Below, piece after piece: positions 1 through 8,649 of a stretch of 64,000 nt of DNA (position 1 is the first letter of the stretch; each line of letters opens with the position of its first letter). The DNA is from Escherichia coli (GTDB taxonomy: Bacteria > Pseudomonadota > Gammaproteobacteria > Enterobacterales > Enterobacteriaceae), in the NCBI RefSeq assembly GCF_050920415.1, contig NZ_CP169309.1. The stretch is one strand, 5' to 3'. The notes under the pieces are model-generated. The model ran no database searches. It was not told the origin of the DNA and was given only the letters and a program-made list of their open reading frames with translations. The position numbers and the translations under genes are program-made.

Positions 1-1
1 C

Positions 2-367
2 GACACGTTCAAACGGCGTATCCGGCTCATCACCAGACGCGTTGGAGGCCAGGGCATAACCCAGATTGCCGAACAGATGCGGATATACCTTCGAGGCTGG
101 AAGTCCTACTTCCGGCTGGCACAAACCCCGAAGATATTCAAAGATCTGGATTCGTGGATACGTCACCGACTCCGGGCTATCCAGCTGAAGCACTGGCGCA
201 CGGGAACGACTGTCTATAATCGCCTCCGCAGTCTCGGGGCTACCCATGAGCAGGCCGCACTTATGGCAGGAGGCGCGGGGCACTGGTGGAGACACAGCGA
301 AGCTGGGCTGAACCGTATACTTACAGTCGACTACTTTGATGCTTTAGGTTTACCTCGACTCGCATAA
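2..367 (+). CDS. Group II intron reverse transcriptase/maturase, C-terminal fragment (5' part lies outside the window)
   Basis: Frame is open from the window edge; translation ...IRGWKSYFRLAQ...LDSWIRHRLRAIQLKHW... resembles the maturase domain of group II intron-encoded proteins; GC-rich structured tail follows (368..450). Confidence 0.55.
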   Translation, partial: DTFKRRIRLITRRVGGQGITQIAEQMRIYLRGWKSYFRLAQTPKIFKDLDSWIRHRLRAIQLKHWRTGTTVYNRLRSLGATHEQAALMAGGAGHWWRHSEAGLNRILTVDYFDALGLPRLA

Positions 368-451
368 CCTCAACTTCTCGAACCGCCCGGTGCGGACCCG
401 CATGCCGGGTGGTGTGGCAGGGGCGCCGCCTTGTGCTGCCCCCTATGCCGA

Positions 452-1123
452 TCAATAAACAGGTTGAATTAACTCCGCTCCCTGGTTTTTGACATTACCT
501 ACCGCGCGCGACACAGGGTGCCAGGTGAACTGGTTTGCTGGCACACAGCCACTGGTAGCGATTTCTGAGGCTTCTTTACCGCTAATCTCTTGCCGCATCC
601 ATTCCCGCGCAGTTTCTGGCGACAGTACCAGCGGGCGGCGGTCATGAATATCTACCAGGCCCTGGTCTGCTGCTGCAGTGACAATTAAAAATCCTTCGGC
701 CTCGTCACCGCGCTCAAACGGTGTGCTACCTATCGCGGCCATAAAAACAGGTTGTCCATCAGCGCGATAGATAAAATAAGGCTGTTTTTTGTCGCCTTCT
801 TTTTTCCACTCAAACCAGCCATCGGCAAAACAGATTGCCCGACCATGTTGCCAGAGCGGTTTAAACATACGACTGGTTGCCGCAGTTTCTACGCGGGCGT
901 TAATCAGCGGCGGTTTATCCCACCATCCGGGAGCATATCCCCAGAAAACCGGATCCAGATGAAGGTGTTCATCACGTTCACTGAGCAGAAGAACTTTGGT
1001 TCCCGGCGCGACGTTGTATCTGCCAATGGGTTCGGGATCGTAGGGAATATCGCGTTCAATATCTTCCGCGAGAAGCGCAAGGTAATCTTCACGCGTTTGG
1101 GATTGGGCAAAGCGTCCACACAT
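452..1123 (-). CDS. yedK: SOS response-associated peptidase YedK (abasic-site processing)
   Basis: 223 aa ORF starting MCGRFAQ (N-terminal Cys nucleophile); recognised sequence and synteny. Confidence 0.9.
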   Translation of the reverse strand: MCGRFAQSQTREDYLALLAEDIERDIPYDPEPIGRYNVAPGTKVLLLSERDEHLHLDPVFWGYAPGWWDKPPLINARVETAATSRMFKPLWQHGRAICFADGWFEWKKEGDKKQPYFIYRADGQPVFMAAIGSTPFERGDEAEGFLIVTAAADQGLVDIHDRRPLVLSPETAREWMRQEISGKEASEIATSGCVPANQFTWHPVSRAVGNVKNQGAELIQPVY

Positions 1124-7317: not shown

Positions 7318-8649
7318 ATGGCACAAGTCATTAATACCAACAGCCTCTCGCTGATCACTCAGAACAACATCAACAAAAACCAGTCTGCGCTGTCGACTTC
7401 TATCGAGCGCCTCTCTTCTGGTCTGCGCATTAACAGCGCTAAAGATGACGCTGCGGGCCAGGCGATTGCTAACCGCTTCACTTCTAACATCAAAGGTCTG
7501 ACTCAGGCCGCACGTAACGCCAACGACGGTATCTCTCTGGCGCAGACCACTGAAGGCGCACTGTCTGAAATCAACAACAACTTGCAGCGTGTTCGTGAAC
7601 TGACCGTTCAGGCCACTACCGGTACTAACTCTGATTCTGACCTATCTTCAATCCAGGACGAAATCAAATCCCGTCTCGATGAAATTGACCGCGTATCCGG
7701 TCAGACTCAGTTCAACGGCGTTAATGTTCTTTCCAAAGATGGTTCAATGAAAATTCAGGTTGGTGCGAATGATGGTCAAACTATCTCCATCGATCTGAAG
7801 AAAATTGATTCTTCAACTTTGGGGCTGAATGGCTTCTCAGTTTCTAAAAACTCTCTTAATGTCAGCAATGCTATCACATCTATCCCGCAAGACGCTGGCG
7901 ATAAACCTGTTGATGTTAACTTTGGTACTACTACTGAGTCTGCAGCAATTGCAGCTAAATTGGGTGTATCCGATACGTCAAGCCTGTCGCTGCACAACAT
8001 TCTTGATAAAGATGGTAAGGCAACAGCTGATTATGTTGTTCAGTCAGGTAAAGACTTCTATGCTGCTTCTGTTGATGCCGCTTCAGGTAAAGTAACCTTA
8101 AACACCATTAATGTTACTTATGATGATTATGCGAACGGTGTTGACGATGCCAAGCAAACAGGTCAGCTGATCAAAGTTTCAGCAGATAAAGACGGCGCAG
8201 CTCAAGGTTTCGTCACACTTCAAGGCAAAAACTATTCTGCTGGTGATGCGGCAGTCATTCTTAAGAATGGAGCAACAAGTCTTGAGTTAACTGATCTGAA
8301 TTTAAGTGATGTTACTGATACTAATGGTAAGGTAACCACAACTGCGACTGAGCAATTTGAAGGTGCTTCAACTGAGGATCCGCTGGCGCTTCTGGATAAA
8401 GCTATTGCATCAGTCGACAAATTCCGGTCTTCTCTAGGTGCCGTGCAGAACCGTCTCGATTCCGCTATCACCAACCTGAACAACACCACCACCAACCTGT
8501 CTGAAGCGCAGTCCCGTATTCAGGACGCCGACTATGCGACCGAAGTGTCCAACATGTCGAAAGCGCAGATTATTCAGCAGGCAGGCAACTCCGTGCTGTC
8601 TAAAGCGAACCAGGTACCGCAGCAAGTTCTGTCACTGTTACAAGGCTAA
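7318..8649 (+). CDS. fliC: Flagellin (short 443 aa H-antigen variant)
   Basis: Conserved flagellin N- and C-terminal domains with a divergent central region; shorter than K-12 FliC. Confidence 0.95.
   Translation: MAQVINTNSLSLITQNNINKNQSALSTSIERLSSGLRINSAKDDAAGQAIANRFTSNIKGLTQAARNANDGISLAQTTEGALSEINNNLQRVRELTVQATTGTNSDSDLSSIQDEIKSRLDEIDRVSGQTQFNGVNVLSKDGSMKIQVGANDGQTISIDLKKIDSSTLGLNGFSVSKNSLNVSNAITSIPQDAGDKPVDVNFGTTTESAAIAAKLGVSDTSSLSLHNILDKDGKATADYVVQSGKDFYAASVDAASGKVTLNTINVTYDDYANGVDDAKQTGQLIKVSADKDGAAQGFVTLQGKNYSAGDAAVILKNGATSLELTDLNLSDVTDTNGKVTTTATEQFEGASTEDPLALLDKAIASVDKFRSSLGAVQNRLDSAITNLNNTTTNLSEAQSRIQDADYATEVSNMSKAQIIQQAGNSVLSKANQVPQQVLSLLQG

Follow-up and report, generated by a model that had tools for sequence, protein, structure and literature searches.

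Bacterial group II introns of class C (IIC) typically insert just past a stem-loop, a hallmark of the class (PMC4424553, PMC7306698, PMC3522654), and they read structure more than sequence at the target (PMC4424553, PMC7306698). Reviews list homing sites, terminators and attC sites as the only target specificities of bacterial group II introns, and for class C they list terminators and attC (PMC4424553). The terminator-targeting members include B.h.I1, GsI-IIC and O.i.I1 (Robart et al. 2007, as summarised in PMC4424553 and PMC7306698), and the group IIC-attC introns comprise S.ma.I2 and its relatives (work of Quiroga, Centron, Leon and Roy, as summarised in PMC4424553 and PMC3001079). Introns are also joined to insertion sequences (IS) in other ways. 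E.c.I4 in IS629 and IS911, and RmInt1 in ISRm2011-2, home into IS transposase genes (PMC3522654, PMC4075523), and in IStrons such as CdISt1 a group I intron is combined with an IS605 or IS607 element (PMC4227781, bioRxiv 10.1101/2023.11.20.567912). Here we examine the start of a 64,000-nt stretch of Escherichia coli DNA (assembly GCF_050920415.1, contig NZ_CP169309.1; "the window"). Our analysis indicates, with a probability of about 0.9, that window positions 1-452 form the 3' quarter of a class C intron that is full-length, apparently functional and located in the right end (RE) of an IS200/IS605 element. A neighbourhood survey found that class C introns only slightly prefer mobile elements (PMC7306698), and an older survey of Enterobacteriales reported them in Dickeya and Sodalis only (PMC3522654). 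In the searchable literature, which does not cover the Zimmerly database and ISfinder, nothing was found that describes class C or other group II introns in the right ends of IS605/TnpB elements.

One complete genome, E. coli MFDS1022581 (NZ_CP169399.1), is 100% identical to positions 1-460 of the window. The source-genome locus extending 8 kb to either side of the window start is called L001 here; L001 coordinates are obtained by adding 8000 to those of the window. At this locus the complete intron is 1,832 nt long and starts at L001 6621, 1,380 nt upstream of the window. BLAST of the whole element against the window aligns intron positions 1381-1832 and ends at 452. The two ends, GUGCG at L001 6621 and ...GCCGAU at window 452, fit the canonical GUGYG...AY. 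The boundaries were examined with an empty-site query, in which 300 nt from upstream of the intron were joined to 300 nt from downstream. This query matches over its full length in 1,095 of 5,426 complete E. coli genomes, which carry the IS-yedK junction without the intron and provide natural empty-site controls in some 1,100 genomes. In the empty allele of XH990 (L006) the junction reads ...CCACGTCCTTCAGGGCGTGGAGGATGT/CAACAAACAGG, that is, ...GGATGT/CAAC..., and in the source it reads ...GGATGT/GTGCG......CCCCCTATGCCGAT/CAATAAACAGG, with GTGCG...GCCGAT/CAAT... as the inserted element and its 3' junction. Because the empty and occupied sites differ by exactly GTGCG...GCCGAT, the insertion is exactly 1,832 nt and its last base is window 452. 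The 3' splice site therefore lies at 452..453 on the plus strand, between the last intron base U452 (...GCCGAU) and the first 3'-exon base C453; the intron-less allele runs hairpin-AGGATGTCAA/C at this place. The first-pass annotation, which had ended the element at 451, was short by this one base.

The 3' end ...CUAUGCCGAU is kept in distant relatives, and GCCGAU is found as far away as Sinorhizobium meliloti, whose intron-encoded protein (IEP) is 63% identical. A 3' end at ...CCCCCUAU (...CUAU, window 446), with GCCGATCAA as the IS terminus, was considered as well and was ruled out, since the intron-less allele places GCCGAT inside the insertion and relatives conserve it. At the yedK site the intron is present only in this genome among the 5,426 complete E. 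coli genomes, and at least 80% of the 460-nt query is present in only two of them, the source and Z1323. Neither a second intron copy nor a second homing site was found in the 64-kb window. The precise 1,832-nt presence/absence polymorphism at a single IS-yedK junction bears on retromobility indirectly, and the intron may have arrived recently and may still be active.

The protein-coding part of the intron confirms what the first-pass annotation had noticed, an open reading frame (ORF) that is cut by the window start and ends in a maturase C-terminus. Frame 2 is open from window base 2 until the stop codon at 365-367, and the 121 residues that it encodes match GIIM, the maturase-specific domain of group II introns in Pfam (E=2.3e-19). 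This is the 3' part of ltrA (1..367, plus strand; last 121 codons at 2-364, stop at 365-367), coding for the thumb/X (maturase) domain and the C-terminal DNA-binding region. The full gene of 1,371 nt, annotated as ltrA in RefSeq (WP_000186915.1), encodes an intact protein of 456 aa, the same length as its Polaromonas homologue. With 419.8 bits the protein clears the cut-off of 300 set for the NCBIfam model TIGR04416 (group II intron reverse transcriptase/maturase); it carries the Pfam domains RVT_1 (112-316) and GIIM (336-409), and shows the reverse transcriptase (RT) active-site motif YADD in its translation (RYADDCNVY). Pfam gives RVT_1 and GIIM only and the protein stops 47 aa past GIIM, leaving no endonuclease (HNH/En) domain. 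The element had been described as an intron remnant, a view that does not survive extension into the source genome: the RT domain, the upstream ribozyme domains and the 5' end are all in place, and the truncation is only that of the window edge.

In a similarity ranking, which is not a formal phylogeny, the nearest solved protein is the Geobacillus GsI-IIC RT (PDB 6AR1; 433 bits, residues 48-455 aligned). The runners-up are 7UIM (313 bits) and 5HHJ (267 bits), which we take to be IIC proteins as well, their PDB names not saying so. Proteins of other classes score lower, namely the T.el4h-type IIB protein (149 bits) and LtrA of class IIA (134 bits).

The non-coding RNA of the intron amounts to 376 + 85 nt (about 460 nt). 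Outside the window, between the intron 5' end and the ORF, L001 6702-6971 matches the Rfam models of domains I to IV, group-II-D1D4-3 (RF02001) at 103.6 bits (gathering score 32) and group-II-D1D4-1 (RF01998) at 46.8 bits (gathering score 35). The 5' end GUGCG, these matches and the TIGR04416 score all agree with the earlier identification of a group II intron. Inside the window the covariance models are silent: Rfam at E<=1 returns nothing in the first 5 kb, and the domain V/VI model RF00029 matches neither bases 340-480 (141 nt, E<=10) nor the whole element. Folding 368-446 as a single sequence gives the same domain V hairpin as the comparative analysis described below, not significant by itself (z = -1.38). 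Because RF00029 is silent and the single-sequence fold is not significant, the assignment of domains V and VI rests on comparative evidence. The covariance-model search suggested in the first-pass annotation thus worked for domains I to IV and gave a false negative for domain V, and the negative result should not be read as absence of the intron.

For the comparison, relatives were gathered across 100,044 species genomes with the intron 5' consensus as a DNA pattern, and 15 distinct segments spanning domains V and VI were extracted. RNAalifold predicts two conserved hairpins within 368-452. In this consensus 95.9% of the cells hold standard pairs and 14 of the 26 pairs have compensatory changes on both sides, with the reservation that the outer bases of domain V (eight on the 5' and nine on the 3' side) were fixed by the extraction pattern, so that the inner pairs are the informative ones. 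The covariation score was not reached in any of 500 shuffles, and pairing fell to 43-50% when the partners were slid by 1-3 columns. The G+C-rich tail that had been proposed to hold domains V and VI does hold them. Domain V, in group II introns a hairpin of roughly 34 nt with a catalytic triad and a 2-nt bulge, occupies 380..416 on the plus strand. Its lower helix of 10 bp and upper helix of 3 bp are separated by the 2-nt bulge AU (402-403), and the loop has 4 nt; its 13 pairs are 99% paired in the 15 relatives and five show compensatory changes. CGC at 384-386 takes the catalytic-triad position. CGC instead of AGC is typical of IIC introns, as in the Oceanobacillus IIC structure. The domain VI helix spans 415..450 (plus strand; consensus helices 2 and 3), with compensatory changes in 9 of 13 pairs. 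Within it, A445 is unpaired, lies 7 nt before the last intron base and is invariant in 15 of 15 relatives (...CUAY...). The branch point of group II introns is usually an unpaired A of domain VI, 7-8 nt before the 3' splice site, and A445 is the candidate lariat branch point. Between the ORF stop and domain V, the linker CCUCAACUUCUC (368..379, plus strand), conserved as ACCTCAACTTCTC in Polaromonas, Burkholderia and Pseudomonas relatives, is probably the 3' strand of the domain IV stem or the IV/V junction.

Directly upstream of the intron lies a divergent pair of IS genes, tnpA (NF033573, 142.6 bits) and tnpB (NF040570, 224 bits). tnpB (L001 5762-6580) encodes only 272 aa, which align with two separate parts of the TnpB profile (389 positions), and we therefore consider it internally deleted. 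Similar hairpins stand near both IS ends, at about L001 5283-5302 and 6594-6613, as expected of IS200/IS605 elements, which are characterised by the Y1 HUH transposase TnpA, an optional TnpB and subterminal hairpins in place of inverted repeats. The hairpin before the intron is the RE hairpin of an IS200/IS605 element and not a terminator. The intron is sense-oriented in the right end (...hairpin-AGGAUGU/intron/CAA), 7 nt past the hairpin foot and 3 nt before the IS terminus. Because copies at other loci share only CAA and then diverge, the IS ends in ...hairpin-AGGATGTCAA, with the intron placed between its T and CAA; the last 3 nt of the right end, CAA, occupy 453..455 (plus strand) as the start of the 3' exon, and unrelated flank begins at 456. 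This geometry equals that of IS608, whose right end is cleaved at TCAA, 10 nt past the hairpin foot. As a separate observation, a RAGATH-18-like motif at the tnpB 3' end (L001 6507-6550; 29.5 bits, below the gathering score of 44.9) sits where the scaffold of a TnpB guide RNA would be expected.

Judged by its sequence features, the intron is a bacterial class C intron, and its surroundings can be compared with those of related insertions. We collected 122 distinct insertions sharing a 19-nt 5' motif, many of them from a single genome with a heavy intron load, that of Candidatus Burkholderia verschuerenii. In 92 of the 122 flanks, a G+C-rich stem with 5 or more perfect base pairs ends 2-14 nt before the insertion site (mode 7), compared with 36 of 610 random positions in the same loci. 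In 80 of these 92 a T-run follows the stem, which makes them intrinsic terminators. An earlier statistic, the minimum free energy and last paired base of 45-nt flanks, was dropped because A-tracts pair with the T-runs, and was replaced by the explicit search for G+C stems with random controls. In the source, exactly 7 nt separate the stem CCACG/CGTGG from the insertion site; the stem is followed by AGGATGTCAA with no T-run, unlike a terminator, and the stem-loop is not an attC site either. The Candidatus Burkholderia verschuerenii strain itself, UZHbot4, a leaf-nodule symbiont, shows how far such introns can spread: more than 55 contigs (L018-L075) break off some 100-125 nt inside the same class C intron, with a different terminator before every copy, and this massive proliferation leaves the assembly fragmented.

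The last five exon bases, GAUGU, pair with ACAUC (L001 6799-6803), which the Rfam alignment and the sequence pattern identify as the loop of exon-binding site 1 (EBS1). In about 20 independent copies EBS1 and the 5' exon covary, with the combinations ACAAAA/UUUUGU, ACGAAA/UUUCGU, AUCG/CGAU and GCCCA/UGGGC. Since EBS1 covaries with the 5' exon, the 5' boundary and target recognition by base pairing are confirmed. Class C introns typically rely on a short EBS1 pairing, lack EBS2 and read the 3' exon through EBS3; the 3' exon begins with C in 11 of the 12 copies listed. The class and exon junctions (...GGATGT/GTGCG and GCCGAT/CAA) left to be identified by the first-pass annotation are settled by these comparisons.

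The same junction recurs in other IS elements. A second E. coli locus, in Z1323 beside traG, has an identical junction and a decayed copy that is 97.9% identical with a disrupted ORF; the IS sequence upstream of the two E. coli copies is related (91% identical over 409 nt). On plasmid 2 of Polaromonas JS666 the IEP is 81% identical, and the intron is 78.9% identical across its entire 1,832 nt. The 1.1 kb upstream of the Polaromonas and E. coli introns, which hold tnpB and the right end, have no detectable nucleotide similarity, and the C-termini of the two TnpB proteins are clearly homologous but diverged. A metagenome scan for GGATGT followed by the intron 5' end retrieved 42 contigs; as the exon was fixed in the query, the scan speaks to recurrence of the hairpin/TnpB context and not to its frequency among class C introns. 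The flanks contain about 20 different hairpins of the form GGAATCC-stem-CTTCAGG-stem-AGGATGT, whose stems are compensated. Upstream sequence of 1 kb or more is available in 28 contigs; 11 of these encode a TnpB homologue (23-53% identity) there, five of them also TnpA on the opposite strand. Other contigs have solitary palindromes without IS genes. At the 3' side, one of 12 copies with distinct flanks lies at a contig edge and one, that of Polaromonas, is followed by a second intron; nine of the remaining ten continue with CAA and then unrelated DNA, and one with CAC. The ...CCGAU/CAA junction is found in nine further independent complete copies.

A neighbour-joining tree of domain I (first 376 nt), quickly built on a biased sample, places 20 of 23 RE-type introns in one cluster with EBS1 ACAUC, ACGUC or similar, and no terminator-type intron falls inside it. 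In a scan with the exon left unconstrained, only L117 among its own matches is RE-type, besides the flanks of L001, L003 and L007 found earlier. With moderate confidence, these data suggest that the intron belongs to a class C sublineage with the IS605-type right end as its homing site. We propose more tentatively, at somewhat less than an even chance, that this sublineage switched its target to the IS200/IS605 RE hairpin, always at hairpin-AGGAUGU/CAA, with consequences for the guide RNA and for IS immobilisation.

Several further observations concern relatives of the intron. A 228-nt 3' remnant of the same family is present between ygiV and parC in about 1,380 of 5,426 complete E. coli genomes. 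In E. coli 'DH5alpha' (NZ_CP026085.1; L002 4001-4237) it matches window 228-455 at 93% identity, has non-compensated changes in domain V and is followed by CAA; it looks like the relic of an old insertion of IS plus intron. It is absent from K-12 MG1655, which has mqsR-mqsA-ygiS there. On the Polaromonas JS666 plasmid 2 (L007 2957-4368), the second class C intron, about 70-80% identical, starts right after the GCCGAU of the first. Its EBS1 AUCG pairs with CGAU, and domain VI of the first intron apparently serves as its stem-loop in a tandem arrangement. Copies in eight contigs (L130, L132, L134, L138, L147, L160, L164 and L168) follow a long perfect palindrome, ACATCCTCCACG...CGTGGAGGATGT, and neither tnpA nor tnpB was found within 1.5-2.5 kb of them; in L139, L158 and L169 the hairpin before the intron is similar, on its 5' side, to the left end of the E. 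coli IS. Such palindromes and hairpins may represent solo or miniature IS605-derived elements.

Other explanations of the locus were weighed against the full-length class C intron in an IS right end. A fortuitous G+C-rich tail behind a different type of RT, such as a retron, a DRT/Abi system or a group II intron-like RT, would account for the weak, sub-threshold matches to retron and DRT models. These matches are far below their cut-offs, TIGR04416 is above its own and all ribozyme domains are present, so that this idea has almost no probability left. A degenerate fragment left by decay, consisting of the maturase C-terminus and domains V and VI only, would agree with the 452 nt seen in the window and has a precedent in 3' remnants such as the one at ygiV-parC. 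The contiguous 1,832-nt element with its uninterrupted ORF, strong domain I-IV matches and canonical 5' end makes decay highly improbable.

The relation between intron and IS admits two more explanations. The IS and the intron might have reached yedK as one composite, in which case the TnpB neighbourhood would reflect co-inheritance and not homing. An intron inside IS boundaries is indeed carried by any movement of the IS or of an island, and the similarity of the IS upstream of the two E. coli copies would fit such transport. Yet 1,095 genomes have the IS at the identical yedK junction and lack exactly the 1,832 nt; the Polaromonas and E. coli introns are far more alike than the IS sequences and TnpB proteins that surround them; about 20 different hairpins share one junction; and EBS1 is complementary to the exon. 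The insertion also parts the RE hairpin from the cleavage site, which should hinder movement of a composite by TnpA, an argument that draws on IS608 biochemistry. We regard a passenger origin as very unlikely. Alternatively, the intron could be an ordinary terminator-seeking class C intron that landed by chance on a terminator-like IS hairpin, with no IS605-specific lineage behind it. The preference of class C introns for structure over sequence (PMC4424553, PMC7306698), the T-runs in most hairpin flanks, the single RE-type match of the unconstrained scan and the few RE-type flanks outside the main cluster of the domain I tree all leave room for this. However, EBS1 ACAUC/ACGUC fits GAUGU, unlike the EBS1 of terminator-type relatives, which is A-rich; 20 of 23 RE-type copies cluster with no terminator-type intron among them; and the junction falls at the identical nucleotide in very different IS elements. 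A chance landing is therefore unlikely in our view, and less readily dismissed than a passenger origin.

Some findings also weigh against a functional, homing class C intron in the IS right end. We infer splicing, the mobility route and present-day activity from the sequence, and activity is unproven because the genome has a single copy and no donor copy. The tnpB gene next to the intron is truncated (272 aa), which makes transcription into the intron uncertain, and a promoter scan found no sigma-70-like promoter in the IS/intron region. EBS3 was not located, no search having been aimed at it or at the absence of EBS2. To these are added the silence of RF00029, the fixed exon of the metagenome scan and the simple tree and biased sampling behind the domain I cluster.

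A mechanism can be outlined from the observed anatomy, boundaries, class, hairpin context, pairing of EBS1 with intron-binding site 1 (IBS1), presence/absence polymorphism and recurrent position in diverged IS605 elements, with its steps taken from the established class C pathway (PMC4424553). The intron would be transcribed within RNA reading through tnpB and the right end. The IEP would bind the intron and aid its splicing to a lariat ribonucleoprotein (RNP), leaving the predicted ligated-exon junction GGAUGU/CAAUAAAC; the ligated exons expected from splicing read ...GGAGGAUGU/CAAUAAACAGG. The RNP may then recognise the DNA stem-loop, the 5-nt IBS1 (GAUGU, opposite EBS1 ACAUC) and the first 3'-exon base (IBS3), and reverse-splice into that DNA strand. 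Because the IEP lacks an endonuclease domain, the nascent strand at the replication fork would serve as the primer of cDNA synthesis.

In E. coli K-12 the order of genes is yedK, yedL, yedN', intG', fliE. The source and about 1,095 other genomes (some 20% of complete E. coli) instead have yedK, the IS200/IS605 element, ybcM, ybcL, emrE and fliE. The three genes between fliE and the IS (L001 2526-4386), of which ybcL is frameshifted in the source strain, are presumably those of the DLP12 prophage region in K-12. yedL does stand at the corresponding K-12 position, as the first-pass annotation had stated. Its suggestion of a strain-specific insertion holds for the intron, found at this site in a single genome, and fails for the replacement of yedL, which is shared by those ~1,095 of the 5,426 genomes; nor does the yedL/yedK locus mark the target, since the intron is directed at the IS right end.

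The gene yedK (452..1123, minus strand), encoding an SOS-response-associated peptidase, is convergent with the intron according to the ORF list, RefSeq and the K-12 alignment. Its TGA stop codon is the reverse complement of 452-454, spans the intron/exon junction and is supplied by the IS end TCA(A). The last intron base restores the T of this codon, so that the intron leaves yedK unaltered. YedK has 223 aa here (ending ...PVY) and in carriers of the IS that lack the intron (...PVC in XH990), compared with 222 aa (...PV) in K-12. Beyond yedK follow yedF, yedE, yedD and amyA. Further along, only a 123-nt N-terminal fragment of fliC is annotated (window 7318-7440), with no gap before an IS2 (IS3-family) transposase gene (region 7318-8460; L001 15318-16460), and flagellin appears to be interrupted in the source strain.

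The element itself is routine, an ltrA gene annotated in RefSeq within a standard class C ribozyme, and its target niche is unusual and possibly undescribed. Occupation of IS605 right ends points to a further specificity made of structure plus 5 nt, aimed at another single-strand-active mobile element. The target is also the spot where TnpB guide RNAs are made, and so it bears on the interaction between TnpB/omega-RNA systems and retroelements; in TnpB elements, the insertion position is 3 nt upstream of the join between omega-RNA scaffold and guide. If the proposed target switch is true, the guide RNA of an occupied element might, speculatively, be restored only by splicing, and the IS would be immobilised with its RE hairpin split from the TnpA cleavage site. 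IIC introns would then have a third target type, and group II introns a counterpart to the intron/guide-RNA conflict of IStrons.

Compared with the terminator-type IIC introns, the present intron has many common features. Its IEP is nearest to the GsI-IIC RT and lacks the En domain, the ribozyme is compact with CGC at the triad position of domain V, and the 5' consensus GUGCGCCCAGCAUGGGCGC, the insertion about 7 nt past a stem-loop and the short EBS1/IBS1 pairing are shared, probably together with a single-base contact with the 3' exon. In contrast, its stem-loop is the RE hairpin of an IS200/IS605 element followed by AGGAUGU instead of a U-run, its EBS1 is ACAUC instead of A-rich, and its site lies in the transcribed non-coding tnpB 3' end and right end, not behind a terminator. 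Like the IIC-attC introns, it would represent a class C sublineage that moved from terminators to a structured, single-strand-active motif of another mobile system; theirs is the bottom-strand hairpin of the integron attC, and they form a different clade with a different IBS1. E.c.I4 and RmInt1 also use IS elements as safe, multi-copy homing sites, but they belong to other classes and recognise long, sequence-specific sites in coding sequence through EBS1, EBS2 and protein contacts, whereas the target here is a hairpin plus 5 nt in a non-coding IS end. With IStrons the intron shares the union of a self-splicing intron with a TnpA/TnpB element of the IS200/IS605 family and a possible interplay between splicing and guide RNA. 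Rfam found no group I intron family in the region, which sets the locus apart from IStrons. In these, a group I ribozyme lies at the left end of the transposon and the whole chimera is moved by DNA transposition, while the intron described here is an autonomous group II retroelement near the right end that would move by reverse splicing and reverse transcription.

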